Below, piece by piece: positions 1,104-22,219 of a DNA stretch of 63,590 nt. The notes beneath the pieces are model-generated. The model was not told the DNA's origin and ran no database searches. It was given only the letters and a program-made list of their open reading frames with translations. Location of the stretch: contig PUND01000065.1 of the NCBI GenBank assembly GCA_003551645.1, positions 1 to 63,590 of the forward strand. Reading direction: 5' to 3'. The translations under genes were made by a program, and so were the position numbers. Source of the stretch: Phycisphaerae bacterium (GTDB lineage: Bacteria > Planctomycetota > Phycisphaerae > SM23-33). Positions within the stretch are counted from its first letter, which is position 1. Each line of letters starts with the position of its first letter.

Positions 1104-2324
1104 CTATTCCTCCCGGCCGGCCGTCCGGGCCGGCGCCGGGGCCGCGTCGTCGGATACGACGGTCACGGACGCCCCGTCTTCGAGCAGATGATGCCCGAGC
1201 GTTACCACCATTCCGTCAATCTCCGGCTCAATTATCTGAACCCACCCGTCTTCGCTTGCGCCGGTCACCACCGGCACGAACTCGACCGTATCGGCCTGTC
1301 GGTCTATCAGGAAAACACCGGTCTCGTCGTTGCGCCTGCTGACGGCAGAGGCCGGAACCGCAGTGGCGTCCTCGTGGGCCTCCAACTCGATGCTGACCCG
1401 CACGAACATGCCCGGCGCCAGCAGCAAATCTGGATTCGGAACCTCCAGCTCCACCCTCGCCTGTCGGGATTCCTCTTTCAGAACCGGCGCCTTCCGCGCC
1501 ACCTGGCCGCTGAACGTCCGGCCCGGCCAGGCGTCGCTGCGTATGTTGGCCTCCTGCCCGACGGTTATGCCCGGGTAGTCCCGCTCGATGACGTGTATGA
1601 CCGCCGTCAGCGGGTCGGCCTGGACTATCGAGACGATGGGGTCGTTCGCACGCAGCATGCTGCCGGCATCGACGAACCGCTCAGCCACCACTCGCTGCGA
1701 GTCGGCGTCACCTTCGTTCGCCCACGTGGCGTGAATCCGGGTGTACCTCTGCCGAACACGAGCCGCCTCAAGGGCCGCCTCCCGCTGCTTTATCTGCGCC
1801 TTGACCACCTCGTGACCGGCGTCGGCGGCGGCGTATTTGCCCTGCGCCTGGTCCAGGTCCGCCTCGGAAACCACCCTCTCCTCGCGAAGCTCCTGCACAC
1901 GCTCGTACTCCCTGCGCGCCAGCTCCAGGTTGCTGCGCGAGTCGGCGAGGTTGGCCTGGCTGACCTCCAGCTCCGCCTCGGCCTGTGCGACCGCCTGGTC
2001 GTATTCGGCGCTGTCCAGGACCGCCACCAAGTCTTCGCTGTTGACGAAATCGCCTATGTTGACCTTAAGCTCTTCCAGCCGTCCGCTGACGTTCGGCGCC
2101 ACGACTACGCGGCTTTTCGGGCGCAGCGTGCCGGTGAACCCGGCCACGTCGCGAATCGTCCGGGTTTCCACGGGATGGGCCTCCACGGCCACGGCGCGGC
2201 CGTTCCCGCGGCCGCGGCCGGAACCGGAGCCGGCCTCCGTCTGATCAGCGAGCCGCCGCTGAACCAGCAAACCCAGCAGCGCCAGGGCGCCGACCAGGAC
2301 AATAGCGACGAATAGTTTCTTCAT
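1104..2324 (-). CDS. RND efflux periplasmic adaptor (membrane fusion protein)
   Basis: N-terminal membrane anchor, lipoyl-like halves flanking a coiled coil, and the motifs APNVSGRL, LLLAPGMFVRV and AVPASAV. Start taken at MKKLFV (2324). Confidence 0.93.
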   Translation of the reverse strand: MKKLFVAIVLVGALALLGLLVQRRLADQTEAGSGSGRGRGNGRAVAVEAHPVETRTIRDVAGFTGTLRPKSRVVVAPNVSGRLEELKVNIGDFVNSEDLVAVLDSAEYDQAVAQAEAELEVSQANLADSRSNLELARREYERVQELREERVVSEADLDQAQGKYAAADAGHEVVKAQIKQREAALEAARVRQRYTRIHATWANEGDADSQRVVAERFVDAGSMLRANDPIVSIVQADPLTAVIHVIERDYPGITVGQEANIRSDAWPGRTFSGQVARKAPVLKEESRQARVELEVPNPDLLLAPGMFVRVSIELEAHEDATAVPASAVSRRNDETGVFLIDRQADTVEFVPVVTGASEDGWVQIIEPEIDGMVVTLGHHLLEDGASVTVVSDDAAPAPARTAGREE

Positions 2325-2399
2325 GGGGTTACCTTGGTTGTTCGGCGCCGCGGCCGACGGCAAATCGCCGGCGGCCCGCCCGGCGCCATGCAGAAGGAA

Positions 2400-3192: not shown

Positions 3193-3963
3193 TCATGCGC
3201 TTCCCCCGGCCGGCGTTTCATCCACGAAGACCCGCACCAGCAGCACGCCAAGCTCGTACAGCAGCCACATCGGCAGCGCCAGCGCCACCTGGTCCAGCGG
3301 CGAAGGCGACGTCGCCACCGCCCCCAGCAGGAACATGCAGACTATCACGTGCCGGCGGTATTTCGACAACTGCCCGCGGGTAACCACGCCCATCCTCGCC
3401 AGCAACAGCACCACTATCGGCGTCTGAAAAGCCAGGCCGAACACCAGCATCAGCCCGAGCATCATCGAGACGTGATTGTCGAAGGTGATATCCGCACGAA
3501 GGTTCAGCCAGCCGCTGAAGCCGATGAAGAACCTCAGCACCGGAACCGCCACGCCCAGCAGAAAGAACGCCGCCCCGGCCAGAAACAGCCCGGCCGAGAC
3601 CGCCACCGCCGGCAACACCATCCGCCTCTCGCGACGATGCAGCCCGGCCGCCATGAACATCCAGAGCTGGTAAAACACCCACGGGGACGACAGCACCAGT
3701 CCGGCCACAAGTGCGACTTTCAAGTATATGAGAAACCCCTCCGCGGCGTGCAGGACGATAAGCTCCGGCTCCCGGCCCGTCTCGGCCATCGCGCGGATGT
3801 AGGGGTGTTTCAGCGCATCGACCAAGTGGTTCCCGGCCGCCATGGCTATCGCGACCCCCACGGCCAGTCCCAAAAGCGCGCGGATAATCCGCCGACGAAG
3901 CTCCTCCAGATGCTCGCCGACGGTCATTCTGGCTTCATGCGCGGTTGACGGTTCATCGTCCAT
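3193..3963 (-). CDS. tatC: Twin-arginine translocase TatC
   Basis: MTVGEHLEELRRRII, YQLWMFMAAGL, FGLAFQTP, ATSPSPLDQ, LYELG and six hydrophobic segments. Confidence 0.95.
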   Translation of the reverse strand: MDDEPSTAHEARMTVGEHLEELRRRIIRALLGLAVGVAIAMAAGNHLVDALKHPYIRAMAETGREPELIVLHAAEGFLIYLKVALVAGLVLSSPWVFYQLWMFMAAGLHRRERRMVLPAVAVSAGLFLAGAAFFLLGVAVPVLRFFIGFSGWLNLRADITFDNHVSMMLGLMLVFGLAFQTPIVVLLLARMGVVTRGQLSKYRRHVIVCMFLLGAVATSPSPLDQVALALPMWLLYELGVLLVRVFVDETPAGGSA

Positions 3964-4126
3964 ATCGAAGCGACCTCGGACGCCGGCCACGCGGCGGCGG
4001 GGCATTGTAGCAGCCGGAGGAGGTCATTTGCGAAGGGTCTCGGCCGTCACTGAGTCCGCCAGGCCGAAGCGCGGTTCCGGCACCGCCGCCGCGGGCCTCG
4101 CGGGGCCAAGCACCATGGCCGCCCGG

Positions 4127-5692
4127 TCAGCTTGCCTCGTCGCGCATCGCCAGCGCGCCGGTCGGGCACGCGGCCGCGCATTGGCGGGCGGCCGTCTTGA
4201 GGCCCTTCGAAAGCGGCTCGCCGAACGGCACCTGCACGCGGACATCGAAACCCCGCCCGACGAACGTCAGCCCCAGCGGCTCCTTATGCTCGGCCGCGAC
4301 CCGCACGCATACGCCGCACTTGATGCACTTGGTCGGCTCATAGACCACCCCCGCGCCGTCGATGCGAGTATAGGTCCGCCGGTCGCCGTGGAAGCGCCTC
4401 GGCGAGGCCTCGTACTCGGCCGAGTGGAGCCGAAGCTTGCAGGAGCTTTTCTTGCGGCAGTCACACCGCAGGCAGCGGCGCGCCTCGGAGCGGGCCAGCG
4501 AATCGCGAAGCTCTCCCGGCTGGGCAGCCCCGGGAATGCGGGCGACCCTGTTGGCGTGGTTCAGGAAGGTCTCCATCTCCTGCTCGCCGAGCCGCCCCAT
4601 GTGACAGCTCCACTGCCGCCGGGGAGCGTCCGTATTGTCTCCGGCGAGCATAAGGCCGATGGATGCGGCGGCGGCCTTTCCGTCGGCCACCGAACGGACG
4701 GTCATCCGCCGGGCGCGGACCACGTCGCCGCCGGCGAAGACCCTCGCCCGAGACGTAAGCAGACTGTCGCGCGCAACCGAGACCTTGCCGTCGCGCACGT
4801 CCAGCCCGAACGGCCGGGACCCCTCCGACAGCCGACCGACGCCGACGAACACCGCGTCGAAACTCCCAAGCAGCTCCTCCAGCGAGACGGCCTTGCCGAC
4901 CTCCACGCCGAAGCGGAACTCCACCTCCATGTCTCGCACACAGTCCGCCTCGGCGTGCAGTATCCGCCTGGGCAGACGGTCTTCGCCGAGGGCGTAGCGG
5001 AGCATCCCGCCGGGCTGGTCGCGTCTTTCAAAAATGGTGCATGCGTGACCGGCCCGCCGGAGATGCCAGGCGGCCGACAGTCCCGCCGGACCCGCCCCGA
5101 CCACGGCCACGCTCCTGCCGGTATCGGCCGCGGGCTTGGGCGTATAGGGCCTGTGGCCGCCGGTGAGGTCGGCCTCGGCTGCGTAGCCCTTCAGTTGCAT
5201 GATTGATACGGCCTCGTCGGCCGCCGCCCGACGACAGGCCTTCTCGCAAGGCGCCGAGCATATCCGACCCAGCACCGCCGGCAGGGGGATGTCGGTTTTT
5301 ATTACCTCTATTGCCTCGCGGAGCTTGCCCTGGCCGATGTATCGCAGCATTTGGGGTATGTCCAGCCCGGCCGGACACGCGACGGTGCACGGTGCGTCGC
5401 AGTCGCCCAGGTGATCGCTTAGCAGAAGCTCCAGGGCGTTCCCGCGGGCCTCCAGGACCTCCGGGGTGTTGGTGAACACACGCATCCGGTCTTCACAGAC
5501 GGTCCCGCAAGAGGGCATTAGACCTTCCTGTCCGACGACCTTCACCAGACAGACCATGCAGCTCGTCCGGGCCGGCTTGCCCGGCAGGTGACAGAGCGTG
5601 GGTATGTTCACGCCCAACCCGCGGGCCACCTCAAGGACGGTCTGGCCCGGCTTGAACTCCACCTGGTGATTGTCGATTTGAATACTGGGCAT
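4127..5692 (-). CDS. Fe-S/FAD oxidoreductase: NuoG/HydA-like N-terminal 2Fe-2S domain with an inserted GltD/NfnB-like FAD domain (StnC/NsoC-like, shortened)
   Basis: IPTLCH..SCMVC..PSC (2Fe-2S), DCDAPCTVACP, GRICSAPCEKAC, VVGAGPAGLSAA (FAD binding), VFAGGD, CLRCDC..C, CIKCGVC and CPTGAL. Confidence 0.85.
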   Translation of the reverse strand: MPSIQIDNHQVEFKPGQTVLEVARGLGVNIPTLCHLPGKPARTSCMVCLVKVVGQEGLMPSCGTVCEDRMRVFTNTPEVLEARGNALELLLSDHLGDCDAPCTVACPAGLDIPQMLRYIGQGKLREAIEVIKTDIPLPAVLGRICSAPCEKACRRAAADEAVSIMQLKGYAAEADLTGGHRPYTPKPAADTGRSVAVVGAGPAGLSAAWHLRRAGHACTIFERRDQPGGMLRYALGEDRLPRRILHAEADCVRDMEVEFRFGVEVGKAVSLEELLGSFDAVFVGVGRLSEGSRPFGLDVRDGKVSVARDSLLTSRARVFAGGDVVRARRMTVRSVADGKAAAASIGLMLAGDNTDAPRRQWSCHMGRLGEQEMETFLNHANRVARIPGAAQPGELRDSLARSEARRCLRCDCRKKSSCKLRLHSAEYEASPRRFHGDRRTYTRIDGAGVVYEPTKCIKCGVCVRVAAEHKEPLGLTFVGRGFDVRVQVPFGEPLSKGLKTAARQCAAACPTGALAMRDEAS

Positions 5693-5693
5693 G

Positions 5694-8012
5694 TTATTCA
5701 ACTTCCACGGCGTCGGCGGGGCATACATCGCGGCAGGCGCCGCAGCGGATGCATTCTTCCGTGTCGATTTCGTGTTTCTCGTGCGGCCGGGCGACAATCG
5801 CGTCGGCCGGGCAGTCCTGCGCGCATCGTGTGCAGCCGATACAGTTGTCGTTTATGCCGTATGTTATAAGGGCGGTGCACTGCTTCGCCGGGCATCGGCC
5901 CCGGATGTGCGCCTCGTACTCATCTCGAAAATGCTCCAGCGTGGATAGCACCGGGTTGGGGGCGGTCTTGCCAAGTCCGCAGAGACTGTTGTCCCGTATT
6001 GAATGCCCCAGCCGTTCCAGCTCCCGCAGGTCGCCGTCGGCGCCCTCGCCGCCGCAGAGCCGCTCCAACATGCGCAGCATCAGGCGGGTCCCGACGCGAC
6101 AGAAGGTGCATTTGCCGCACGACTGGTCCTGGGTGAACTCCAGGAAGTACCGCGCTATTTCCACCATGCAGTCGTCCTCGTCGAGCACGACCAGCCCGCC
6201 CGAACCCATCATCGCGCCGACGTGGACCAGTGCCTCATAGTCCACCGGCGTATCGGCCAGCGATTCCGGAACGCAGCCGCCGGAAGGCCCGCCGACCTGC
6301 ACGGCCTTGAAGCGCTTACCTTCGCCTATGCCGCCGCCGACCTCGTGAACCACCCTGCGCAGCGTGATACCCATCGGCACTTCGATAAGCGCGTTGCGGT
6401 TCACCTTTCCGGCCAGAGCGAACACCTTGGTGCCCTTGCTGTGCTCGGTGCCAAGTTTGGCGAATTCGTCGGCCCCGTTGCGGAGGATCCACGGCACAAG
6501 CGCGAAGGTCTCCACGTTGTTGACCAGCGTCGGCCTGCCCCACAGCCCGCTCCGCGACGGATACGGCGGCCGAAGCCGGGGGTTGCCGCGACGGCCCATG
6601 ATCGACTCCAGCAGGGCGGTCTCCTCTCCGCAGACGAATGCGCCGGCGCCCTCCATGACCCGCATCTTCAGATCGCCCAGCAGCCCCTCCTGCTCGCAGT
6701 GGGATATCGCTTCGCGCACGCGCGGTATCGCCAGCGGATACTCCTGGCGGATGTACAGAATCGCCTCGCCCGCGCCGATGGTTTGAGCGGCGGCGGCTAT
6801 GCCCTCGATGACGCTGTAGGGATAGCTCTCAAGGATCATCCGGTCCATGAACGCCCCGGGGTCGCCCTCGTCGCCGTTGCACACGACGTATTTGACGTCG
6901 GAGTCCGCCTCGGCGACCTCCCGCCATTTCTCGGCGGTCGGGAACCCGGCGCCGCCCCGGCCGCGAAGCCCGCTGCGTTCGATTTCGCCCAGCACCTGCT
7001 CGGCCGACATATCCTCGCGGCACTTACGAAGCGCCTCGAAGCCGCCCGTTTCCAGGTACTCCCGCAGGTCCAGCGGGTCGCTGCGTCCGGCTCGTTCGGT
7101 GACCAGCAGCACCTGCGGGTCCCAGAAGCTCGAAGCCCGCTGCGTGCTCATATCCAGCCCGTATCGCGTCACCGGCTCCCAGGCGTCGTCGGTCAGCAGA
7201 TGCTCAAGCGCCGTGGAGGCCGTGCGCCGCGCCTTCGCCAGCACGCCGCCGGGATGCAGGTGTCTGCCGAGAATCGCCCTCACATCGTCCGGGCGGACCT
7301 GTGCGTAAAGGTGCGAGCCGTCGTCCGGCGTAACTATCTCCACCAGCGGCGTCTCGTGGCACATGTTCACGCAGCTTACCGGCTTGACCTTCGCGTCGAT
7401 GCCAAGGTCCGCCAGCGCCTTGTCGATGGCCTGCTTGACGTCCCGTGTGCCGCGGGCGACGCAGCAGGAGTCCAGCGTGATTCGGATTTCCGCCTCCCGA
7501 GGCGTGCCCGGCCGGCGCCGGCGCTGCTTGGCGCGGCGTTTCTGAAGCTCAAGGAAGTCATCCAGCGAGCGGGTGATACTCTCGGTGGTAAGGTGTCCGA
7601 AGGTCACGTCGTCTATCTGCATCACCGGCGCCAGCGAGCAGCAGCCCAGGCAGGCGACTCGCTCGACGGTGAAGACCCCTTCGCTGTCGGTATCCTCGTC
7701 GCCCTCGATGCCGAGGTGTTTGCAAAGCGCGTCGGTTACCAGCGGAGCGCCTTTGACGTGGCAGGCGGTGCCGTGGCAGACGCGGACGGTATGCCGCCCG
7801 GCGGGACGGAGCCGAAACTGCGTGTAGAATGTGCTTACGCTTTCGACCGCGGCGGGCGTGATGTCGGCAATCTCGCAGAGCCGGCGCAGCGCCTGCTCGG
7901 GCAGATACCTGTACCTGGCCTGGATCGCCTGAAGCAGCGGTATCAGAGCGTCCTCGCTACGCCCGAGCCGCTCGACCACTTCGTCAACATGTGTCAGGTC
8001 AGGTTCCGCCAC
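5694..8012 (-). CDS. Fused NuoE + thioredoxin-like 2Fe-2S + NuoF + 2x[4Fe-4S] flavoprotein (HydBC/BfuBC-type NADH module)
   Basis: VCHGTACH..CLGCCSLAP (NuoE), SCC..CVNMC (second 2Fe-2S), SGLRGRGGAGFPT, CNGDEGDPGAFMDR, FVCGEET, SCGKCTFCRVG..LCGLG, HIRGRCPAKQC and two C-terminal CxxCxxCxxxCP motifs. GTG start at 8012 follows a purine-rich RBS. Confidence 0.92.
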   Translation of the reverse strand: MAEPDLTHVDEVVERLGRSEDALIPLLQAIQARYRYLPEQALRRLCEIADITPAAVESVSTFYTQFRLRPAGRHTVRVCHGTACHVKGAPLVTDALCKHLGIEGDEDTDSEGVFTVERVACLGCCSLAPVMQIDDVTFGHLTTESITRSLDDFLELQKRRAKQRRRRPGTPREAEIRITLDSCCVARGTRDVKQAIDKALADLGIDAKVKPVSCVNMCHETPLVEIVTPDDGSHLYAQVRPDDVRAILGRHLHPGGVLAKARRTASTALEHLLTDDAWEPVTRYGLDMSTQRASSFWDPQVLLVTERAGRSDPLDLREYLETGGFEALRKCREDMSAEQVLGEIERSGLRGRGGAGFPTAEKWREVAEADSDVKYVVCNGDEGDPGAFMDRMILESYPYSVIEGIAAAAQTIGAGEAILYIRQEYPLAIPRVREAISHCEQEGLLGDLKMRVMEGAGAFVCGEETALLESIMGRRGNPRLRPPYPSRSGLWGRPTLVNNVETFALVPWILRNGADEFAKLGTEHSKGTKVFALAGKVNRNALIEVPMGITLRRVVHEVGGGIGEGKRFKAVQVGGPSGGCVPESLADTPVDYEALVHVGAMMGSGGLVVLDEDDCMVEIARYFLEFTQDQSCGKCTFCRVGTRLMLRMLERLCGGEGADGDLRELERLGHSIRDNSLCGLGKTAPNPVLSTLEHFRDEYEAHIRGRCPAKQCTALITYGINDNCIGCTRCAQDCPADAIVARPHEKHEIDTEECIRCGACRDVCPADAVEVE

Positions 8013-8019
8013 AGGCGAT

Positions 8020-9777
8020 TCATTCCTTTCCCACGGCCCACAGGTGTCGTCGGCCGCGGATGTAGATGCGTCCGTCCACGTACGCCGGAGAGCAGTTGGA
8101 CCGCTCGGACAGATCGGCCGTGCCGAGTTCGTCATACTCATCCGCCGTCGCCGAGAACCGGTGCATCACGCCGTCGGATGTCAGCAGATGCACCTCATCA
8201 CCCACAAGCGTCGGCGAGGAGCGGACGGTCGAGTCGAAGTCGTGCTCGTAGATCATGTCGCCCGTCTCGGCGTCGAGGCAGGTCATCAATCCATAGGTCT
8301 GCACAAGCCAGATGCGATCGTCGGTCGCCAGAGGACTTACGATGTCCGGCAGGTCGTCGTAGGCGATCCATTCGATGTGGGTATCCGTAACGTCGCCTTC
8401 GCCGCCGGTGCGGATGGCCGATAGCTGCGAGTATGCCGTTACCGCGTACACCTTGCCGTCGGCATACGTCGGGGACGGTCCCACGTCGCCTGTCAGACAG
8501 TCGGCCCGCCATATCTCGCCGCCGTCGGCCGGGTCGTAGGCGATTACCCACGGGCTGGAGGTGGTTATCAACTGCTCACCGTCGGGCGTATCCGCCACCA
8601 GCGGCGTGGACCAGGAGTTCATCACCGGGCGTTCCTTAAGATACCGCACCGAGCCGGTCTCCAGGTCCAGCCCGTACAGCTCGCTGTACATGGCTTCCGG
8701 GTCCGTGCCCTGGTCGTACTGGATGATGACCTTGTCGCCGTGAATAATCGGCGAGGAGGCATGGCCGTAGATGTTGTCCGGTGGCCCCAGGTTGCGGGCC
8801 CATGCTCGCTCACCCTCCATATCGGTGCAGATCACGTCGCCGTTGGCGAAAACCGCTACCACATACCTGCCGTCGGTGGCAGGGCTTGGCGCGGCATATC
8901 CGGTGTCGTCCATCACGCTAGGCGCATCGGGCCGGGCGCCGGGGATATTGACCGCCCGGTGGCGCCAGAGCAGCTCGCCTGTGTCGGCGTTATAGCAGTA
9001 AAGCTCGCGATTTTCGGCGTCGGCACCGGTGATAAACACCCTGTGGCCGGCGACGACAGGCGAGTTGTGCCCCGGAAGCGGTATCTGCTCGGACTTCCAG
9101 AGGATGTTCCGCCCGCTCTCGCCGTCCCAGTCGTCGGGAAAGTCCCCGTCGGGCGCGACCCCAAGCCCGCCGGGTCCGCGGAAGCGTGGCCAGTCCGCCG
9201 AGACCTCAACCGCCTCGGGGGCGGGTTCATCCTCGGTATCGACACCCGCAACCGGCTCCGGTTCTTCCGGGGCGACGCGCCTGGCAAGCGGGTCGGGCGA
9301 GACCAGCGCCAGTGCTGTGATGGCGGCCGCCAGTGCTATAGAGGCCGCCCCGATCGACCACCGGGCGGTTTTCCTCCGGGCGATCTCGCGCCTGCTCAAA
9401 TCGCCCGAGCCGCCGGGGACCTTCACCGGACGACCCGAGGCCGCGACGTGTGCGGATATCAGCAGTGCGGCCACGCCGCCGGCAAGCAGCCAGCCGCCGC
9501 GACGCATGAACGCCTGCCGCCGAAAGAACTCCCGCCGCAGCCGAAGGTCCGCTTCGCGAATCCGCTCGCGCAGCTCCCCGTCGCCGGGGGTTCTGTCCAG
9601 CTCCGCCCGGAGTTGCTGGAACCGCGGCGATTCCCAGGGGTCGGCGCCCTCGGCGCCGGACCATTCCCAGACCAGCAGACCGGCCACCATCAAACAGAAC
9701 ATGGCGCAGACCAGGACCATCGACCGGGCGGCCCGGCGACGGGTGGCGAGGCGTTTGTCGTCGGTCGGGGACATCAA
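8020..9777 (-). CDS. Membrane-anchored PQQ/BamB-like beta-propeller protein with three N-terminal TM segments
   Basis: Three hydrophobic segments, then DWPRFRGPGGLG and repeated W..SP/SSP propeller blades. Confidence 0.85.
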   Translation of the reverse strand: MMSPTDDKRLATRRRAARSMVLVCAMFCLMVAGLLVWEWSGAEGADPWESPRFQQLRAELDRTPGDGELRERIREADLRLRREFFRRQAFMRRGGWLLAGGVAALLISAHVAASGRPVKVPGGSGDLSRREIARRKTARWSIGAASIALAAAITALALVSPDPLARRVAPEEPEPVAGVDTEDEPAPEAVEVSADWPRFRGPGGLGVAPDGDFPDDWDGESGRNILWKSEQIPLPGHNSPVVAGHRVFITGADAENRELYCYNADTGELLWRHRAVNIPGARPDAPSVMDDTGYAAPSPATDGRYVVAVFANGDVICTDMEGERAWARNLGPPDNIYGHASSPIIHGDKVIIQYDQGTDPEAMYSELYGLDLETGSVRYLKERPVMNSWSTPLVADTPDGEQLITTSSPWVIAYDPADGGEIWRADCLTGDVGPSPTYADGKVYAVTAYSQLSAIRTGGEGDVTDTHIEWIAYDDLPDIVSPLATDDRIWLVQTYGLMTCLDAETGDMIYEHDFDSTVRSSPTLVGDEVHLLTSDGVMHRFSATADEYDELGTADLSERSNCSPAYVDGRIYIRGRRHLWAVGKE

Positions 9778-11138
9778 CCGTCCTCTCCGGCCGATGCGGC
9801 GGCGTCATTGCGGCGTTTCCGCTCAATAGGACAGACTTCGAAGCATCTCCCGCACGACAGGCACGTGCCTCGGTCGGGCACGTAGTCCGGCCTGCGCCTC
9901 CGGACCGACCATCGCACAAGGCGCATCCCGGCGACAAGGCCGACGAACCCGCCGACGATCATCGCTCCGTGTCTGACTCGCGACCGGACCCGGCCGGCTA
10001 TGGCGTGTATCTCATCCGCACCGAGCGGTTGTCTGTCATAGGCGGCCGCCAGGTCGTGGTCGGTTTCCTCGCCGGCGTCGGCGCGGCGCAGGTGTTCGGC
10101 CAGGCGGACGTGATGGTCCGTCCGGCTGACTGCCGGACCCGCCAGCCAGCCGGCGCACAGACCGGCCGCAATCATCACCGGCCAGAGCACCAGACACACC
10201 GAGAGTCCGAGCTTGCCGAAATGCCGGCCGGGGTCCGGCGCCGACGGCGCCTCGATCGCGTTGTACGGGCAGGAGTTCTCGCATAGGCGGCACTGCACAC
10301 ATTCGTCGGGTGTTATTGTTACGTGCCACTTGCTCAGCCGGCTCAACGGCCTTAGCAGCACGCTGTACGGGCAGATGTAGCGGCAATACGGCCTGGCGAC
10401 GAAAACGCCCACCAGCAGCATCACCCCGCCCAGAATCAGCAGGTCCACACGCCCGGCGACGGAAAAGCTCACACGGCCGGCTTCGCCCATCGCCACCTGT
10501 TCTATCCATTTGCCCACCGGAACCAGACGGAAGATACTCACGAACGGGTCGAACCGGCAGATGAGGAACACCGTTCCGCTGAAGGCCAGCAGCACCGCCG
10601 CGGCCAGATAAGCCACCGCGAACAAGCTCAGCCCCGCCTCAATCGGACGGGGGATTTTCAGCGCCTTCAGCGCCACCACGTCCTGTATCGCCCCCAGCGG
10701 ACAGACCCCGCCGCAGAATGTCCGCCCGAACAGCAGCGTCCCGAAAAGCGGCAACAGGAGGAACGCGATTATCGGAAAGCTGACCGCGTAGCCGTCGCCG
10801 CCGATGCTCAATGCCGCGTTCTGGACCGCGCCTATCGAGCAGACGCAGCCCAGCCGGTAGAAACCGAAATAAAACAACGAAAGCAGCATCACCACCGCTA
10901 TGCCCCGTCGGGAGCGCCTCTTGAACGCAAACCACGAGGCCGCCACGATGGCGCCGGCGAGCACTGCCGCATCCACGTATTCAATGTGCCGCCAGATGCC
11001 CTGGCGCGGTTCGGGAGTAGTGGTCTCCGGCAGCGGCTCGTCCAGTTCCGGCGTGGGGAAGCGCAGATCCGCCGTCGCTGCCCCCGACAGCAGCATCAGC
11101 AGTATCAGGATAATTCCGGCGTGGCGCGTCGAGGTCAT
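9774..11138 (-). CDS. Polytopic membrane 4Fe-4S protein (NapH/MauN/NosR-C-like)
   Basis: GCVCSIG, RTFCGGVCPLG, RPYCRYICPY, CVQCRLCENSCP, CLSCGRCFEVCP and multiple TM helices. Confidence 0.88.
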   Translation of the reverse strand: MTSTRHAGIILILLMLLSGAATADLRFPTPELDEPLPETTTPEPRQGIWRHIEYVDAAVLAGAIVAASWFAFKRRSRRGIAVVMLLSLFYFGFYRLGCVCSIGAVQNAALSIGGDGYAVSFPIIAFLLLPLFGTLLFGRTFCGGVCPLGAIQDVVALKALKIPRPIEAGLSLFAVAYLAAAVLLAFSGTVFLICRFDPFVSIFRLVPVGKWIEQVAMGEAGRVSFSVAGRVDLLILGGVMLLVGVFVARPYCRYICPYSVLLRPLSRLSKWHVTITPDECVQCRLCENSCPYNAIEAPSAPDPGRHFGKLGLSVCLVLWPVMIAAGLCAGWLAGPAVSRTDHHVRLAEHLRRADAGEETDHDLAAAYDRQPLGADEIHAIAGRVRSRVRHGAMIVGGFVGLVAGMRLVRWSVRRRRPDYVPDRGTCLSCGRCFEVCPIERKRRNDAAASAGEDG

Positions 11139-11140
11139 AA

Positions 11141-11710
11141 TCAGCGTGTCTTAAGCAGGTAGGGCTGGTCGGCGGGAACTCGGCGGAAGGCGTCGGCGGG
11201 ACAGGCAGGTGCTATGGTGCATTTGTTGCAGTTCACACAGCGGTCGTGACGTACCTGCAGAAACAGCGAGCCGTTACCAAACCGCTCGCAGCCGTCAACA
11301 CACTTGCCGCAGCCGATGCAAAGCTCCTCGTCTATGGAATATTCGTAGTAGGGGTCCTTCTTGAACGTCCTGACAATCGCGCCGGTCGGGCAAAGCTGGT
11401 TCTCGGCCGCTGTCGTCAGCTCGGTGGCCTTGGGGTCGAAGTAGCCGGTGCACAGCTCGCAGTAGCCGCATATCTCGTATGCGTGCACGGCCTTGACGGC
11501 CGAGGGGTCCAGCACGCAACGGGTGGCGCAATTCCCACACTTGACGCACTTGTCCGGGTCCAGTTGCCAGACGGTGTCGCCCTTGCCGGCGACGGCCTCG
11601 GATATCAGCCCCGCCGTACCGCCGGCCAGCACGACAACGCCGCCCGCCTGCAGGCCCCGGCGCAGCAGTTCACGCCGGGTGAGCTTGGGTTTGTCGTCGC
11701 GGTCAGTCAC
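11141..11710 (-). CDS. Tat-signal polyferredoxin (NapG/MauM-like, 16 Cys, up to 4x[4Fe-4S])
   Basis: LTRRELL twin-arginine motif with hydrophobic core; CVKCGNC..C, CGYCELC, CP, CIGCGKCVDGC, CVNCNKC, CP. Confidence 0.85.
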   Translation of the reverse strand: MTDRDDKPKLTRRELLRRGLQAGGVVVLAGGTAGLISEAVAGKGDTVWQLDPDKCVKCGNCATRCVLDPSAVKAVHAYEICGYCELCTGYFDPKATELTTAAENQLCPTGAIVRTFKKDPYYEYSIDEELCIGCGKCVDGCERFGNGSLFLQVRHDRCVNCNKCTIAPACPADAFRRVPADQPYLLKTR

Positions 11711-11960
11711 GTTCGGCTCCGCGGGTGTTCTGGCGGTAAGACATCGCCTGCGGCAGTCGGCAGCCGGAGACCGCCGAGCAGTCGCGGCAGATGAATTCGT
11801 TGATGCATGTCTCGGCCTGCCGGTCGCCGCGCCGCAGGAGGTTCTTGCCGGTCATTGTCGCACCGGCGGCCACCAGCGCGCCCGCTGCCAGCCATCGCAG
11901 GCCGCCGGCCAATAGCTCCCGCCTGGTCAGGTTCTTCGCGTCCTCTTTACGTCCGTCCAT
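11703..11960 (-). CDS. Small Tat-motif protein with a four-Cys motif (hypothetical)
   Basis: 85 aa; LTRRELL, a hydrophobic helix and C-x5-C-x2-C-x5-C. It overlaps both neighbouring genes, consistent with translational coupling. Confidence 0.7.
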   Translation of the reverse strand: MDGRKEDAKNLTRRELLAGGLRWLAAGALVAAGATMTGKNLLRRGDRQAETCINEFICRDCSAVSGCRLPQAMSYRQNTRGAERD

Positions 11961-12964
11961 CAGTCGCTCCGTTGTTTCGGCTCGAAAATGCGCACCTCGG
12001 CTTTGATGGCATCCAGCACGTGGATTCGGTCGCGGCTGTCCACAGCCAGTTCCAGCCGCTCGGTGTCGGCGTCGAATTCCGTGGCCAACGCGACCACGGA
12101 CAGGAACCGCCCGTGCGGGTCATAGAGTTTAACGCGCGGCAGGCCCTTTTCGGCCGTAACTACCCGGCCGTCGGACAGGACCGCCACGTTGGTGGGGTTG
12201 CAGCAGCCGCAGAAGCCCTCGATATCCCGCATGGACGGCTCGCCCCAGCTCAGCTCCAGACCTCCGTCGGGCGTATAGGTCTCCACCCGCCATCGGCCGG
12301 GGTTGGTCACACGAATCAGCCCGTCCGCTCCGGCGGCGATATCCAGGCACAGCGCCCGGACCAGCAGGCCTGGTATATCCCACTGCTCATCCGCCTCGCC
12401 GAGCCGGCCGATCGGATTTCCGGACAGGTCCAGTCGATGCACTACCGCGTTGCCGGCGTCGGCCGCAAAGACATCTTCGCCCATCACCGCCAGGCCGGTC
12501 AGCATTGTCCGTTCGTCGAACGGCTCCCATTCATCGAGCATGTCGCCGTCCGGGCCGTACACCTCCACCCGGTCTATCATCCCGACGTACACCGTGCCTT
12601 CGTCCGCCACGGCCAGGCACGTCGCCTGTCCGCCGGTTTCAAACCGTCGGATGGTTTCACCGTCCGGATTGACGCTCCGCAGTTCGGCATCCCCGGCGAT
12701 ATACAGGACATCGTCCGGGCCGACAGCGATTGCCCGCGGGGTTTCCACACCGGCCGGAATCGCATCGACCTGCCGGTAACCCACGCGGTCGGCGCCGAGG
12801 TCTTTCAGCTCCGAGATGTCGTAGCGGAACTCCTGACCGACCCGGCCGCCCGGCCGACCGGTGCCTTCGCCGGTGAATATCACCCATAGCGTCACCCCCA
12901 GGGCCACGCCCACCACGGCCGCCGGCAGGGCAATCTTCACCAGTCTGTTTAGCGATTCGGACAT
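11960..12964 (-). CDS. Membrane-anchored NHL-repeat beta-propeller with an FCGCCNP motif
   Basis: N-terminal TM segment, NHL-like repeats (PRAIAVGPDDVLYIAG, GLAVMGEDVFAADAGN) and GFCGCCNPTNVAV. Confidence 0.8.
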   Translation of the reverse strand: MSESLNRLVKIALPAAVVGVALGVTLWVIFTGEGTGRPGGRVGQEFRYDISELKDLGADRVGYRQVDAIPAGVETPRAIAVGPDDVLYIAGDAELRSVNPDGETIRRFETGGQATCLAVADEGTVYVGMIDRVEVYGPDGDMLDEWEPFDERTMLTGLAVMGEDVFAADAGNAVVHRLDLSGNPIGRLGEADEQWDIPGLLVRALCLDIAAGADGLIRVTNPGRWRVETYTPDGGLELSWGEPSMRDIEGFCGCCNPTNVAVLSDGRVVTAEKGLPRVKLYDPHGRFLSVVALATEFDADTERLELAVDSRDRIHVLDAIKAEVRIFEPKQRSD

Positions 12965-15923: not shown

Positions 15924-17306
15924 ATGAGAACTAACACCGTCGCCCTGTGTCTGGCTGCCCTGGTCGCCTCCTGCGCCGCGGCCAGCCCGCCTGTTGGCTG
16001 GCGGGGCGACGGAACCGGGCGCTACCCGGACTCCGAAGCGCCGAAGGAATGGTCCGCTGAGCGGAACGTATTGTGGTTTGCGGAAACCTCTGAATGGTCC
16101 AACACGATGCCGACCATCGTGGGCGACCGGATTTTCATAACCGCCGAGCCGGCGACCCTGATATGCCTAGACGCATCGGACGGCTCGGTCCTCTGGCAGG
16201 CCGAGAACGATTACGAAAGCATTCTCCGCGAGGAGGAACTGGCCCGCGCCGAAAAGGCCCGGGAGCTTAACCGTGAGCTTTCCAGTCTGCGAGGCGAACA
16301 CCGCCGCACCCGCCGGGAGGCCGAACGCGCCGAGGATGAGCCGGAAAAGGCCGCCGAACTCGCACAGCAGGTCGAGAAACTCCAGGAGCAGGTGGATGAG
16401 TTGCAGCAGCGCCTGGCGTCCTACAGGGAATACCTCAAGCCCGACACCCACGGCACCAACGGCTATTCCTCGGCGACCGTCGTCAGCGACGGCCGATACG
16501 TTCACGCGCTTTTCGGCATCGGTGTGGCCGTCTCTTACGACATGGAAGGTAACCGCCGCTGGGCAAGGCGCGTCGATAAGCCCCGCAGCGGCTGGGGCCA
16601 CAGTGCATCTCCGGTTTTGGCGGACGGCAAGCTGATAGTGCATGTTACCGACGTGGTTGCGCTGAATACCGACGACGGTGAAGAGATATGGCGCACGCCC
16701 GCCAAGGCCAGCTTCGGCACACCCGTGGTGGCCTCGGCCGACGGCGGCGACGTGATCATCACACCCCGCGGCGACTTCATCAGGGCCTCGGACGGCGAGA
16801 AACTCGGCTCGGTCGCCGCGGGCCTTGAGTACAACTCACCCGTAATCCAGGACGGAGTGGTGTATTTCGTCGCCAACCAAAGAGGCAGGGCAACAGCCGT
16901 CAAGCTTCCGGAAAAGCCGGAGCCATTCGACGCGGAACCCCTCTGGCAGGTGGATATCACACGCAATCGGTACTACGGGTCGCCGGTTTACCGCGACGGC
17001 AGGATTTACGCCGTCACACAGAGCCACCAGTTGACCGTCCTGGACGCCTCCAACGGCGAGGCCATATACGAGATGAGGATCCCCGATATGCCCGGCCTGG
17101 TCTATTCAAGCATCACCATGACACGCAACGCACTGCTGATAAGCACCGAGCGGGGCGCGACCGTTCTGCTCGCGCCCGGTGATGAATACGAGGAACTCGG
17201 CCGGGGCCGCCTGGATACCTTCCGCAGCACTCCGGTGTTCGACTCCGGAAGGATGTACATACGCACACGGTCGGGGCTGTACTGCATCGCACCCGAGGAC
17301 AATTGA
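15924..17306 (+). CDS. Secreted PQQ/BamB-like beta-propeller with a coiled-coil insertion
   Basis: Signal peptide, GWRGDGTGRY, a ~70 aa Glu/Arg-rich helical insert, HSASPVL and STPVF. Confidence 0.82.
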   Translation: MRTNTVALCLAALVASCAAASPPVGWRGDGTGRYPDSEAPKEWSAERNVLWFAETSEWSNTMPTIVGDRIFITAEPATLICLDASDGSVLWQAENDYESILREEELARAEKARELNRELSSLRGEHRRTRREAERAEDEPEKAAELAQQVEKLQEQVDELQQRLASYREYLKPDTHGTNGYSSATVVSDGRYVHALFGIGVAVSYDMEGNRRWARRVDKPRSGWGHSASPVLADGKLIVHVTDVVALNTDDGEEIWRTPAKASFGTPVVASADGGDVIITPRGDFIRASDGEKLGSVAAGLEYNSPVIQDGVVYFVANQRGRATAVKLPEKPEPFDAEPLWQVDITRNRYYGSPVYRDGRIYAVTQSHQLTVLDASNGEAIYEMRIPDMPGLVYSSITMTRNALLISTERGATVLLAPGDEYEELGRGRLDTFRSTPVFDSGRMYIRTRSGLYCIAPEDN

Positions 17307-18163
17307 CCATGGAATCACCCGCGGATGTGTTGTTTTGCCGCTGCGCATACGCCGGCCTCACAGACCCCGCCGAATGTGAACGTCTGCTCGCTGGGCTGCG
17401 GGCGGCGGGGCTTTCCTGCAGCCCTATACCTGACCTGTGCTCGCTGGTCGAAAGACGCGACCCGATACTGAGCGAGACCGCCGGGCGGCGGCGGCCGGTG
17501 ATCGTCGCCTGTCGGCCGAGGGCGGTGCGGGCACTGTTCGCGTACGCCGGGGCGGAGCTTCCCGAAGATGCGGCCGTGACAGACCTTCGCAACACGCCCG
17601 TTGAGGAGGCGCTTGCGGAAATAGTGCCGCCGGAAACACTCCCGGCCGCCCGCGCCGCGGCCGAGGCGGCCGGCGTCGCCGAGCCAAGGCAAGACCCCGA
17701 AGACGGCTGGCTGCCGTGGTTTCCGGTCATCGACTACACACGCTGCACCCACTGCGGTAAGTGCCGTAACTTCTGTCTGTTCGACGTTTACACCACCACC
17801 GACGACGGCCGGGTCGCCGTCTCGGCGCCGCGAAACTGCAAGACCTTCTGCCCGGCCTGTGCCCGCACGTGCCCGGCCGGCGCGATCATCTTCCCCAAAC
17901 ACCCCGATCCGCCCATCGACGGCGGCGAGCCGGACAAACCCTCCAAGGCCGAAGATGCGCCTACACTGGTGCAACAGGATGTGTTCGAGGCATTGAAGGC
18001 CCGCAACCGCCGCCGGCAAGACCCTTGCGAATGCGACTGCGAGAAGGGCGCGGCTGATCCGTCGGAGCAGTTGAAACAGGCCGGGCTTTCCCCCGACAAG
18101 ATAGCCGAGATTTCCCGACGTATTCATGAACATGCCCGGGACAATGAGACCCCCGACAAATAA
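17303..18163 (+). CDS. Ferredoxin-family protein: HdrA-N-like Cys domain plus 2x[4Fe-4S]
   Basis: FCRC..LC..ACRPR N-terminal domain, [24 protein letters not shown] and C-terminal CECDC. Confidence 0.8.
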
Positions 18164-19709
18164 CCGCCTCACACCTGCGGTCGTCCTGGTGGCCGACAGG
18201 ACCCTCAGCGCCCGCTACAACGTGCTGTTCGAGGGCATCCTCGCGACTATGCAGACAACTCAGGTCCCGTCGGTGGCGATGCGGCGGCTTCTGTCTCCCT
18301 CGGCGCCGACCGACCGCGACGGCCGGGCCGTAGTCGCTCCGCTGGGGCTGCGAAGGGTGGAAGCCGCGCTGCTGGACGACGGCCTGGACAACGCCGACGT
18401 TGTCGTCACCACACCGGAACGGCTCGAAGACCTGCTCGGCCCGTGGACCATGGTCGTCGCGGTCAGCTCCAGCGACTTCCTCGGCCGGGGCATGAGCAAC
18501 ACCACAACGAGCAATTTCTGGTCCGGCGAGCTTTATACGCGCCGCTGGACACGTCGGATGATGCAACGGATCCTCGATGCGAAACGTCGTTTCGGCTTCT
18601 CGGTCATCGCCGGCGGGGCGGGCGCCTGGCAGTTGGCCCAGAGGCCGCAAGAGGCAGGGCGACTGGGCATTGATACCGTCTTTCAGGGTTACTTCGAATC
18701 CGGCGGCCCGGACACTGTCCGCGATCTCCTGCGGGGCCGCGAAGCCCCGTTCCACATACACCAGCTGCGGACCCGCGCGGCCTGGGCACGGCCGATTCGC
18801 GCGGCGTCCTCGATGGGCGTGGTGGAGCTTTCCCGCGGCTGCGGCAACGGCTGCCAATACTGCACCATGGGCCGGCATGCGATGGAGCACCTGCCGCCGG
18901 AGACCATACTCAGCGACCTTCGGACCAACTGCGAGGCCGGACTACGAAGCGCCGTCAGCAGCAGTGAGGACTTCTTCCGCTACGGCGCCGACCGCGGCCG
19001 GGTCAACTTCGACGCCCTTACAGGCCTGCTCGAACAGGTCCGCCGGATCCCGGTGCGGTTCATGCAGATAGACCACGCCAACATCAGCTCGGTTCTGGAG
19101 TTCTCCGACTCGCAACTGCGGGAAATCCGCCGACTCCTGACGTGGTCGCCCTCGACTCGCTACCTGTGGGTGAACCTCGGCGCCGAGAGCGCGAACGGCG
19201 AGCTGGTCGCGGCCAACGGACCGGGCAAGCTAGGCGGCATCCCGCCGGCCGACTGGCCCGAAGCCGTCATCGAGGCCGCCGACAAGCTCGACCGCACCGG
19301 CTTTTTCCCCGTGTTCAGTCTGGTCCTTGGGCTTCCCGGCGAGACACCCGCCGACGTCCGTGCTACGCTGGACATGGTGCGGCGGCTCGCCAACGGCCGG
19401 GCTGTCATATTCCCGGTGTTCCACGAGCCGATCATGCCCGGCCAGAAGCGATTCGGCATGGCCGAGATGACATCCGAGCACCTGCAACTGTACCGTACTT
19501 GTTACGAGCTGAATTTCCGATGGGTACCGCGGCTGTTCCGCGACAACCAGAGAGTGGGCGGCGTCGGCGGCGTTCGTCGGACGCTGTTCCAGTTGCTGGG
19601 CAGGGCGGAAGTTGTGTCCTGGAGGCGGAACTTCGCTCGCCTTGGCCGGAAACTGCCCGAAAGCCCCACAACCCGCCATCGGCCGGCCGAGATCGCCGCC
19701 GGCGGTTAG
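18144..19709 (+). CDS. Radical SAM enzyme with B12-binding-like N-domain, resembling the GDGT ring synthase (GrsA/B) family
   Basis: CxxxCxxC ([11 protein letters not shown]), [11 protein letters not shown] and LGLPGET. N-terminal VLVADRT..Y and [19 protein letters not shown] match my recollection of the Grs-family pattern. Confidence 0.8.
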
Positions 19710-19716
19710 AATCGCC

Positions 19717-21399: not shown

Positions 21400-22219
21400 A
21401 GGGCCTGAGCCGGTCCGGGCGTTCCTGGAATCCAGGCGACTCGCCGGCGGCGGGTTCTCCGGCCGGGACGACAAGCCGGACCTGTACTACACGTCCTTCG
21501 CAGCAGATCTGTTCCGGGCGCTGGGCGGCGACGACCCGCCGCCCGGGCTTACCGACTATCTCGATCGCGCCCTGACCGGCACAGCCGATATGGACCTGGT
21601 CCACCTGTGCTGTCTCATCAGGTCCCGGCGGTCGCTGGGGCTTGCCTGCGACGGACGGTTCGCCGACCGGCTGGCCGAGTTTCGCAGCGCGGACGGCGGG
21701 TTCGCGACCTCCCCGAACGCCAGGACCGGAAGCAGCTACGGGGCGTTCCTGGCTGTGGGGGCGTGGGAGGAACTGGACTCTCCCCCCGAAGACATCAACG
21801 CCGTCGCCGAGAGCGTCCTTGCTCTTCGCTGCCGGGGCGGAAGCTTCGCCAACGACTCCCACCTGCGGATCGGCTCGGTACCCGGCACGGCCGCGGCGGT
21901 GGTGGCTTTGAGACACATGGACCGGCCCGCGGACCCTGAAAGCGCCGATTGGCTGAGCAAACGGCAACTCGCCTCCGGCGGGTTTGAACCGGTCGCCGGA
22001 CTGGGCCGCGCCGATTTGCTTTCGACCGCAACGGCGATGGCCGCCCTCGCCGGCGAAGGGCGGCTGACCGGCGAACAGGCCGAAGCGGCCGTGCCGTTCG
22101 TACACCGGCTGTATCGCGGCGGCGGGTTCGCGGCCTCCGAAGACGACCGCGGCGCCGACTGCGAATACACCTGGTATGCGCTGCTGGCACTGGGTCTTCT
22201 GGAGGAGGACCAGGCGTGA
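21338..22219 (+). CDS. Prenyltransferase/squalene oxidase repeat protein (GGTase-beta-like alpha-alpha barrel)
   Basis: Repeated GGF motifs (AGGGF, ADGGFA, GGSFA, ASGGFE), DLYYT, DLLSTATA and DCEYTWYAL. Confidence 0.85.
   Translation: MLTIRLQMLHWASLARNRLPEGPEPVRAFLESRRLAGGGFSGRDDKPDLYYTSFAADLFRALGGDDPPPGLTDYLDRALTGTADMDLVHLCCLIRSRRSLGLACDGRFADRLAEFRSADGGFATSPNARTGSSYGAFLAVGAWEELDSPPEDINAVAESVLALRCRGGSFANDSHLRIGSVPGTAAAVVALRHMDRPADPESADWLSKRQLASGGFEPVAGLGRADLLSTATAMAALAGEGRLTGEQAEAAVPFVHRLYRGGGFAASEDDRGADCEYTWYALLALGLLEEDQA

Follow-up and report, generated by a model that had tools for sequence, protein, structure and literature searches.

A BfuABC-type NADH module without its NADPH domain, encoded in a conserved cassette beside putative membrane and periplasmic partners

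To our knowledge, every Bfu enzyme characterised so far is soluble and has a third substrate that can be named, whether H2, NADPH, formate or aldehydes. The closest described complexes for our purposes are NfnABC of C. saccharolyticus (Csac; 9BOV/9BP5; PMC11829005) and StnABC of Sporomusa ovata (8OH5; PMC10482914, PMC7483475). The electron path of Csac NfnA runs FAD-A7-A6-A3-A2-A1-[B1-FMN-C1]-B3-B4 between flavin adenine dinucleotide (FAD), flavin mononucleotide (FMN) and the numbered clusters, with A4-A5 as a dead-end branch and a Lys ligand at A7 (PMC11829005). The same subunit logic is found in NfnABC of T. sibiricus (Tsi; 9N5U/9N5V; PMC12018979) and in NsoABC of T. litoralis; the A4 cluster is already missing from Tsi NfnA, yet the enzyme is an active bifurcase (PMC9304861, PMC12018979). 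Other Bfu enzymes reach their third substrate through polyferredoxin subunits, as in WorABCSL (PMC12318220) and the Type 2/3 enzymes (PMC9304861). Here we describe a pair of genes at 4127–8012 (minus strand) of contig PUND01000065.1 (assembly GCA_003551645.1, a Phycisphaerae bacterium), the window being the whole stretch analysed, 63,590 nucleotides long. The pair encodes a BfuC-BfuB fusion (P0002) and a short BfuA (P0001, BfuA-short), which together are probably, though not securely, the cytoplasmic NADH-reactive BfuABC-type head of a membrane complex that would also comprise a NapH-like protein, a NapG-like protein and propellers of the PQQ_2 and NHL types. The two genes, and the parts of the A subunit on which the argument turns, are located as follows.

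5694–8012, minus strand: BfuC-BfuB fusion (P0002, 772 amino acids (aa)), consisting of a NuoE domain, a B5 Cys4 domain, an FMN/NADH core with B1, a B2 His/Cys site and B3/B4
4127–5692, minus strand: BfuA-short (P0001, 521 aa), an NfnA/StnC-like subunit by PDB phmmer and by AlphaFold2 with Foldseek
5453–5692, minus strand: N-terminal [2Fe-2S] domain of P0001 with cluster A1 (C34, C45, C48, C62; Pfam Fer2_4, 1e-11)
5171–5401, minus strand: Fer4_20 domain with clusters A6/A7 (C98, C102, C106, C145, C149, C153; non-Cys ligand K168; Pfam PF14691, 5e-17)
4835–5122, minus strand: N-terminal half of the FAD domain, from conserved motifs (GxGxxG at 199–204, E222, G228-G229, R239)
4808–4834, minus strand: deletion scar, the nine-residue linker RLSEGSRPF, from alignment with long relatives
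4643–4807, minus strand: C-terminal half of the FAD domain (VFAGGD with D323), assigned by conservation (F319, A320 and G322 conserved)
4439–4474, minus strand: C-x2-C-x-C-x5-C motif of cluster A3 (C407, C410, C412, C418), the same motif being aligned in 9bov_A and 8oh5_C
4151–4348, minus strand: single-cluster ferredoxin domain of the NuoG N4 type with A2 (C456, C459, C462, C509-P510; Pfam Fer4_Nqo3)

P0002 starts at a GTG preceded by an AAGGA ribosome-binding site, seven bases past the stop of the upstream gene, and the ATG of P0001 lies one base past the TAA of P0002; the P0001 frame is intact and translationally coupled, and both starts are backed by the N-termini of homologues. The NuoE domain of P0002 (residues 10–152; Pfam PF01257, 1.5e-48) is fused to a BfuB whose NuoF-core, SLBB, B1 and C-terminal dicluster regions match Pfam PF01512, PF10531, PF10589 and Fer4_21, with EGDPGAFMDR in the NuoF FMN/NADH core. 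Residues 175–772 align end to end with 9bov_B (C. saccharolyticus NfnB, 4e-201), 9n5u_B (T. sibiricus) and 8oh5_B (S. ovata StnB). Scores of P0002 against bifurcating BfuB chains reach 540–674 bits, with HydB next at 540–630, compared to only ~335–355 for non-bifurcating FdsB/NuoF, the alignments of which leave its terminal domains uncovered. Across P0002 and 59 cassette homologues (n = 60), the ligands of C1 (C79, C84, C121, C125) are invariant, as are those of B1 (C632, C635, C638, C678; 60/60), the B2 site (H702-x4-C707-x4-C712 with C580 and C615) and all eight cysteines of the two CxxCxxCxxxCP motifs of B3/B4 (724–734 and 754–764; 60/60); in the thioredoxin-like B5 Cys4 domain, C184 and C214 occur in 60/60 and C183 and C218 in 51/60. 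The B2 (His/Cys, Zn) and B5 sites are absent from non-bifurcating NuoF homologues and define the Bfu family (PMC9304861), and the pair shows every family feature that can be read from sequence, including a BfuA with A1 and A2 (PMC9304861). By its ligand residues, whatever metal sits at B2 and B5, P0002 is a complete BfuBC core with the FMN/NADH site, B1, C1, B2, B5 and B3/B4. An initial annotation of the locus had recognised HydB/BfuB-like bifurcating features in this fused protein, and all the motifs it named lie where it placed them, in a chain now seen to be homologous to BfuB.

P0001 is most similar in the PDB to 9bov_A (phmmer, 4e-91), 8oh5_C (5e-91) and 9n5u_A (9e-79). On 9bov_A (Csac NfnA), its residues 4–291 pair with 6–291 and its residues 273–514 with 421–671, and because this two-block alignment skips them, ~150 residues, corresponding to the NADPH Rossmann domain, which in Nfn/Stn enzymes carries GxGxxA and an Arg pair for the 2'-phosphate, are absent from P0001. 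The gap between AVFVGVG (ending at 286) and TSRARVFAGGD (starting at 313) is 26 residues. An AlphaFold2 model built from 54 homologues (predicted local distance difference test (pLDDT) 94.6; predicted template-modelling score (pTM) 0.92) matches 9bov_A, 8oh5_C and 9n5u_A with Foldseek query TM-scores (TMq) of 0.90, 0.88 and 0.89, over ~680 columns with a ~157-residue gap. GltD and the NfnSL large subunit (NfnB) have an FAD domain with an inserted NADPH domain, whereas P0001 keeps the FAD half only: matches to 4ylf_B, 5jca_L and GltD end at about residue 287, with TMq of 0.42–0.45. Furthermore, P0001 ends at residue 521, just past the A2 domain, so that the ~500-residue half resembling formate dehydrogenase (Fdh) or NuoG is missing together with A5 (the PDB relatives have 953–1178 aa). 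None of the curated NCBIfam models reaches its cut-off for the pair; P0001 scores 392 bits against NF009454 (cut-off 916) and 87 bits against the NuoG model TIGR01973 (cut-off 470). NuoG of the Complex I N-module has a His-ligated N5 and a large C-terminal domain, in contrast to the all-Cys A3 motif and missing C-terminal domain of P0001.

The clusters that remain are strongly conserved. All cysteines of A1, A6/A7, A3 and A2 are invariant in P0001 and 53 other short forms (n = 54), and the A3 motif is invariant across the 149 representatives described below. Residue 168, the non-Cys ligand position of A7, is filled by K (65 of 136 clusters), H (30) or E (20), all of them residues able to ligate a cluster; K168 of P0001 aligns with the known Lys ligand, which in Nfn-Bfu/Stn enzymes completes A7 beside three Cys. 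Of the C-terminal dicluster (CIKCGVCVRVA ... TAARQCAAACP), one cluster has four ligands and the other at most one: the A4 ligands are absent family-wide, position 466 being A, T or S and 499–502 having no Cys. Since A4 lies off the main path and is already absent from the active T. sibiricus enzyme, its loss amounts to trimming and leaves the wire unbroken. Read from these alignments, selection has strongly preserved the A1-A2-A3-A6-A7 wire and the part of the FAD site that binds ADP. The initial annotation had described a GltD/NfnB-like FAD domain inserted into a NuoG/HydA-like N-terminus, with the second Rossmann domain gone and one Fe-S cluster of a degenerate C-terminal dicluster lost, and had argued that such a protein cannot be a standard transhydrogenase. 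The 26-residue gap, the two-block alignment and the family-wide absence of A4 ligands bear out its description, and alignment to the A subunits of Csac, S. ovata and T. sibiricus reveals no intact NADPH domain. It had not remarked on the loss of the ~500-residue Fdh/NuoG-like half, nor that all these features are family-wide and not one genome's quirk. By sequence, P0001 lacks two of the features that define Nfn-Bfu/Stn enzymes, the NADPH domain and the Fdh-like domain, and is not to be filed as a transhydrogenase.

Compared to Csac NfnABC and StnABC, the pair has the same BfuB core and C1 and B1–B5 sites, and in common with them it has A1, A2, A3, A6, A7 (Lys ligand) and an FAD domain of the NfnL/GltD type inserted after the 2Fe-2S domain. 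It differs in being without the NADPH domain (~150 aa), A4, A5 and the Fdh-like domain (521 versus 1172–1178 aa), in the fusion of BfuC to BfuB, and in belonging to an operon with membrane and periplasmic proteins instead of a soluble three-gene unit. Tsi NfnABC is soluble and monomeric and, unlike the pair, has retained A5 as well as the NADPH and Fdh-like domains.

We also transferred the published FAD contacts of Tsi NfnA (PMC12018979) to P0001 via the printed alignment. The ADP-binding residues G199, G201, G204, D/E222 and G228-G229 are invariant in short and long forms alike. P0001 itself has both flavin-proximal residues, the Arg at flavin N5 (Tsi R234, Sov R239; P0001 R239) and the Asp of the GD motif (P0001 D323). 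Among the short forms, however, the N5 Arg is kept in only 36/136 and is preceded by an aromatic residue in none, versus (F/Y)-R-L-P in 13/13 long forms, and the GD position is acidic in 22/136 short forms versus 10/13 long forms. We infer that short forms would still bind a dinucleotide, most likely FAD, with the A7 end still in use, and that selection for NADPH-type hydride transfer has probably gone from them.

P0001 belongs to a large and widespread group. A word-indexed search returned thousands of matches, the best 120 of which are all 517–553 aa long, are 47–63% identical and cover 99–100% of P0001, and true relatives were found in 587 of 600 scanned stretches (one-genome-per-species contigs). 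Representatives at 50% identity were scanned exhaustively with HMMER, and 2068 matched at E ≤ 1e-30. We classified the best 149: 135 are short, their linker measuring 2–36 residues (mode 10), and the other 14 are long through an insert of 132–185 aa at the same point. The linker sequence is poorly conserved among short forms, which points to plain loop closure and not to a new motif. When mapped on a FastTree phylogeny of 146 representatives, an unrooted tree with poorly resolved deep branches, the long/short distribution takes four changes to explain, of which two or more are imposed by well-supported branches; on these sequences, the change in the NADPH domain likely took place in more than one event. 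Long forms with an intact NADPH domain are abundant in Acidobacteriota, which keep an NADPH-competent BfuA in the same cassette, and by this comparison the deletion is secondary. The long forms from outside Acidobacteriota include examples with decaying glycine motifs (e.g., GPLETG, GGDAEA and AAGSPG), which fits gradual loss. Eight long forms (P0186, P0201, P0215, P0218, P0219, P0232, P0184 and P0213) keep the inserted domain while GxGxxA and YRR are degenerate; from their sequences, these look transitional between NADPH-competent forms and those in which the domain is deleted. On the short contigs of such degenerate forms, a BfuCB-type gene lies upstream, and in one case a propeller gene downstream. 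Two candidate fusions of a short form, one to a complete GltD module (P0126) and one to a URO-D-like domain (P0131), were set aside, each being found on a single short metagenomic contig with uninformative context.

In the window, the gene pair is preceded by five genes on the same strand, with neighbours that overlap or leave 1–7 bases between them.

8020–9777, minus strand: membrane-anchored PQQ_2/BamB-like propeller with N-terminal transmembrane helix 1 (TM1), helical hairpin, TM2 and TM3 (Pfam PQQ_2, 2e-31)
9774–11138, minus strand: NapH-like polytopic membrane Fe-S protein (Pfam Fer4_5; NCBIfam napH subfamily, 1.7e-13)
11141–11710, minus strand: NapG-like 16-Cys ferredoxin with a twin-arginine translocation (Tat) signal (Fer4 families)
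11703–11960, minus strand: 85-aa Tat-type mini-protein with C-x5-C-x2-C-x5-C, from its translation
11960–12964, minus strand: six-bladed propeller of the NHL/SGL type with a G-C-C-N-P motif (C254-C255; weak Pfam NHL match)

We fetched 80 related loci and counted genes in the 48 whose upstream flank is 8 kb or longer. The order NHL, NapG, NapH, PQQ_2, BfuCB, BfuA is constant in 45/48; by gene, the BfuCB fusion is present in 46, the 3-TM PQQ_2 propeller, the NapH-like gene and the NapG-like gene in 45 each, and the NHL propeller in 44. The 80 loci come from Planctomycetota (49), Bacteroidota (14), Armatimonadota (6) and Verrucomicrobiota (3), plus Lentisphaerota, Calditrichota and Poribacteria; Aminicenantes and KSB1 are also named in some record titles of relatives, and the cultured Anaerobaca lacustris carries the cassette. 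The window cassette holds no nuo genes, and a scan for promoters and terminators gave nothing above shuffles. The initial annotation had offered ferredoxin, a radical S-adenosylmethionine (SAM) enzyme or the membrane Fe-S protein as possible outputs of the pair; synteny (45/48) favours the membrane protein (9774–11138), while the radical SAM and Fer4 genes adjoin in only 3–5 of 81 loci.

The cassette proteins carry conserved candidate redox sites. In the NapH-like protein, two CX3CP motifs, two CxxCxxCxxxCP motifs, C98 and C100 (GCxCxxG) and C194 are all at least 90% conserved; a positive-inside reading predicts cytoplasmic 4Fe-4S loops and periplasm-facing loops with C98, C100 and C194, a cysteine pattern that would be compatible with a haem-free wire. 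A two-TM hairpin (~311–410) splits the 4Fe-4S motifs of the window protein, which are adjacent in the 315-aa acidobacterial version. The RR motif and the 16 cysteines of the NapG-like protein are at least 90% conserved. The motif F-x-G-C-C-N-P of the NHL propeller is invariant in 43 homologues, with C254-C255 at about nucleotides 12200–12205. Adjacent Cys-Cys pairs are rare, and a redox-relevant vicinal disulfide occurs in methanol dehydrogenase; by analogy, C254-C255 could be a periplasmic redox site of the system. NapGH, NosGH and MauMN likewise pair a Tat-exported four-cluster ferredoxin with a polytopic protein in which CX3CP and 4Fe-4S motifs occur twice each. The NapH-like protein scores only 39–51 bits against equivalog cut-offs of 213–234, the cassette has no Nap, Nos or Mau enzyme, and coupling of a Bfu head to such a pair is described for none of them in the literature searched.

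A second line of evidence for a membrane link comes from Acidobacteriota. Four of four long contigs (P0154, P0300, P0355 and P0338) hold a seven-gene cassette of PQQ_2, NHL/SGL, NapG-like, NapH-like (315–337 aa), NuoE (295–338 aa), NuoF and BfuA-long. The gene set is the same as in the window, and the BfuA, 40–45% identical to P0001, is also without A4 and the Fdh-like domain. The differences are an intact NADPH domain, a NuoE that is separate and membrane-anchored, a NapH-like protein of 315–337 aa in which the Fe-S motifs adjoin, and the absence of a 3-TM propeller between NapH and NuoE. These four BfuA proteins keep GGGNTAMD, YRR, YRLP and FAGGD, so the membrane module co-exists with the NADPH site and is not a mere substitute for it. 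NuoE is twice its normal length in 4/4 loci, the extra N-terminus consisting of TM1, a charged helical hairpin and TM2. An hhalign comparison of this module (two acidobacterial sequences) with residues 10–122 of the window propeller gave a probability of 97.7% (E 1.5e-12, 107 columns), and four acidobacterial sequences gave 97.6% (E 2.6e-12), versus 9.6–12.2% for a reversed profile and 0.3% for the NapH transmembrane region; pairwise BLAST of the module (E 0.08 and 4.3) was not convincing. By the positive-inside rule, the part after TM2 would be cytoplasmic: in Acidobacteriota this part is NuoE, and in the window it is a basic loop that leads through TM3 to a periplasmic propeller. One membrane module fused either to a cytoplasmic head or to a periplasmic propeller is a classic signature of a shared complex. 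As far as these predicted topologies go, the arrangement argues for a membrane-bound head and shows a membrane link that is older than, and independent of, the loss of the NADPH domain. Separately, in a Planctomycetota metagenome-assembled genome (MAG; L029, 6919–7569), the gene before BfuCB encodes the module alone (216 aa, no propeller), 40% identical to window residues 22–113.

The head, as read from its motifs, is one with an intact NAD(H)/FMN flavobicluster, a low-potential exit through C1-B3-B4 and a mid-potential arm to FAD/A7. In the mechanism we propose, NAD(H) would react at FMN, the classic third substrate NADPH would be dispensed with, and the Fe-S conduit of NapH and NapG would take its place as redox partner, given that a Bfu enzyme needs a third partner, that NADPH cannot bind, and that NapH/NapG is the only conserved candidate. 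The two cytoplasmic [4Fe-4S] clusters of NapH may dock at the FAD/A7 end, which would explain the conserved arm, or at the B3/B4 'ferredoxin' site, where they would replace soluble ferredoxin; the latter would be simplest for the acidobacterial form, in which the FAD face is covered. The conduit would connect the cytoplasm with the periplasmic propellers, conducting electrons in one direction or the other, in a manner resembling the polyferredoxin feed of the WorABCSL 'plug'. In outline, WorABCSL, a Type 2 Bfu enzyme from Acetomicrobium mobile (PMC12318220) of which the 9mqx chains were matched, is alike: a Bfu core with a pared-down BfuA serves as the 'plug', trading electrons with polyferredoxin subunits and not itself binding the third substrate. 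There, a soluble polyferredoxin connects to tungstopterin aldehyde oxidoreductases; here, the polyferredoxins are the NapH-like protein of the membrane and the NapG-like one exported by Tat, and BfuA keeps the FAD, A6 and A7 module.

Several observations weigh against a membrane-bound head. The physical link in the window genome rests on synteny and one domain swap, both indirect, and the hhalign match is made of TM helices, though its controls are low. NapH could contact either arm, and the equivalents of R239 and D323 are relaxed, so that FAD may be weakly bound or absent in many members. Membrane crossing would have to proceed without haem or quinone, whereas canonical NapGH depends on quinol. 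The stretch is contained in just three DNA metagenome runs and in no RNA run. Finally, two loci hold an orphan BfuA-short, beside a Fic gene (L074, 8595–9719) and beside an AAA_21-DUF4276 pair (L075, 7928–9786), which suggests rearrangement, the cassette having been broken by mobile or defence insertions.

Two other accounts of the pair, which we regard as about equally unlikely, deserve weighing. The first takes it as a soluble enzyme with NADH and ferredoxin as partners, whose exposed flavin/A7 end would reduce a small acceptor other than a nicotinamide, such as O2, S0/polysulfide, Fe(III) chelates or quinone, the neighbouring genes being functionally related and not attached. Removal of the NADPH domain should indeed, from the 9bov_A alignment, uncover one isoalloxazine face, the FAD site shows no variation in its ADP-binding motifs, and there are precedents in two promiscuous relatives, T. 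litoralis Nso, described as an NADPH-dependent sulfur/oxygen oxidoreductase, and SfrAB, described as a soluble Fe(III) reductase (PMC7483475). Yet the scar linker is short and unconserved and brings no new substrate-binding motif, the flavin-proximal residues are relaxed and not re-tuned, and the near-obligate operon and the membrane-anchored acidobacterial NuoE are left unexplained. The second account makes the BfuA arm a vestigial dead end or electron reservoir, with BfuCB alone passing electrons of NADH or ferredoxin via B3/B4 to NapH, and FAD perhaps unbound. Conserved clusters may lie off the path, as the A2-A4-A5 branch of Csac NfnA is itself a conserved dead end (PMC11829005); moreover, the FAD face of long forms is occupied by the NADPH domain, making B3/B4 the simplest docking site for NapH, and relaxation at R239 and D323 fits as well. 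What speaks against a vestigial arm is that the A6/A7 cysteines, a residue able to act as ligand (K/H/E) at 168, GxGxxG, D/E222 and GG have been kept over deep divergence while the NADPH domain was freely lost, and that NADH alone would be thermodynamically unable to charge low-potential clusters without a third partner, by general Bfu logic (PMC9304861). A decaying or mis-assembled P0001, whether a pseudogenised StnC or a MAG artefact of the metagenome assembly from which the window comes, can be dismissed: the frame is intact, the ligands are invariant, homologues equal in length and 49–63% identical come from many independent contigs and from a cultured isolate, and the model is confident (pLDDT and pTM as above). 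We retain a membrane-bound NADH-reactive head as the probable reading of the pair.

Around the cassette, other genes of the window recur less regularly. TatC (3193–4005) occurs in 0/81 loci and is not part of the system, and an HlyD-like gene (1104–2363, minus strand) likewise recurs in 0/81. A cassette of Fer4, Grs-like radical SAM, prenyl synthase and class II cyclase genes (17303–24030, plus strand) adjoins the redox cassette in the window; the same terpene/radical-SAM cassette lies on the other side, downstream of BfuA, in L018, L052 and L068. As dedicated partners, the radical SAM and Fer4 genes (17303–19709) were rejected, with the terpene/radical-SAM cassette adjoining in 3/81 loci and the Fer4 gene in 5/81. 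An ATP-binding cassette ATPase of the MacB type and a 1098-aa FtsX-family permease (25454–29571, plus strand) lie up- or downstream in 21–24 of 81 loci. The 85-aa mini-protein (11703–11960, minus strand) has a TRRELL twin-arginine motif and one hydrophobic helix and overlaps both neighbours; tblastn found it in 3/81 loci, the query being too short for a sensitive search, and its membership in the system is uncertain. Oddities of gene spacing in L025, L050, L073 and L081 proved to be inserted genes or extensions of open reading frames, not fusions. Elsewhere in the host genome (contig C70, 35700–43700; L087, 2061–10730), an [FeFe]-hydrogenase operon encodes, in order, a Rex-like regulator, HydC, a 1088-aa HydB fused to a complete GltD with its NADPH domain, HydA and a sensory hydrogenase-histidine kinase. 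Ferredoxin is therefore available in this host, an anaerobe, and full GltD domains are maintained elsewhere in its genome. One salt-lake run contains 98% of the sampled words of the window.

In the literature searched, we found no description of such an architecture or of an NADPH-less Nfn, and the main text and one supplementary file of the Bfu census (PMC9304861) list no fused or membrane NapH-linked type. Current labels for these proteins are generic ('glutamate synthase small subunit-like', 'formate dehydrogenase major subunit', 'ferredoxin'), and in metabolic reconstructions they risk being miscounted as Nfn/Stn transhydrogenases. In this large branch (587 or more species hits and no fewer than 135 clusters at 50% identity, cultured anaerobes included), the site of the third substrate has been deleted, and the enzyme has a genetic tie to the membrane that in one lineage is covalent as well. 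It is possible, though we hold this only tentatively, that the branch represents an unrecognised class of membrane-integrated Bfu complex, found in at least eight phyla, in which a bifurcating or confurcating head (NADH and ferredoxin, with NADPH in Acidobacteriota) sits on a haem-free, possibly quinone-independent NapH-like/NapG-like conduit that would give low-potential electrons to PQQ_2/NHL propeller enzymes or take electrons from them, the NHL Cys-Cys pair being a candidate redox site. If so, the export or import of electrons across the membrane would come within the scope of flavin-based bifurcation, a role would be found for the poorly understood cytoplasmic clusters of NapH-type proteins, and the widespread 'BamB-like' propellers would be redox enzymes or redox clients. 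Should a trans-membrane bifurcating complex be confirmed, the whole machine could be a new class.

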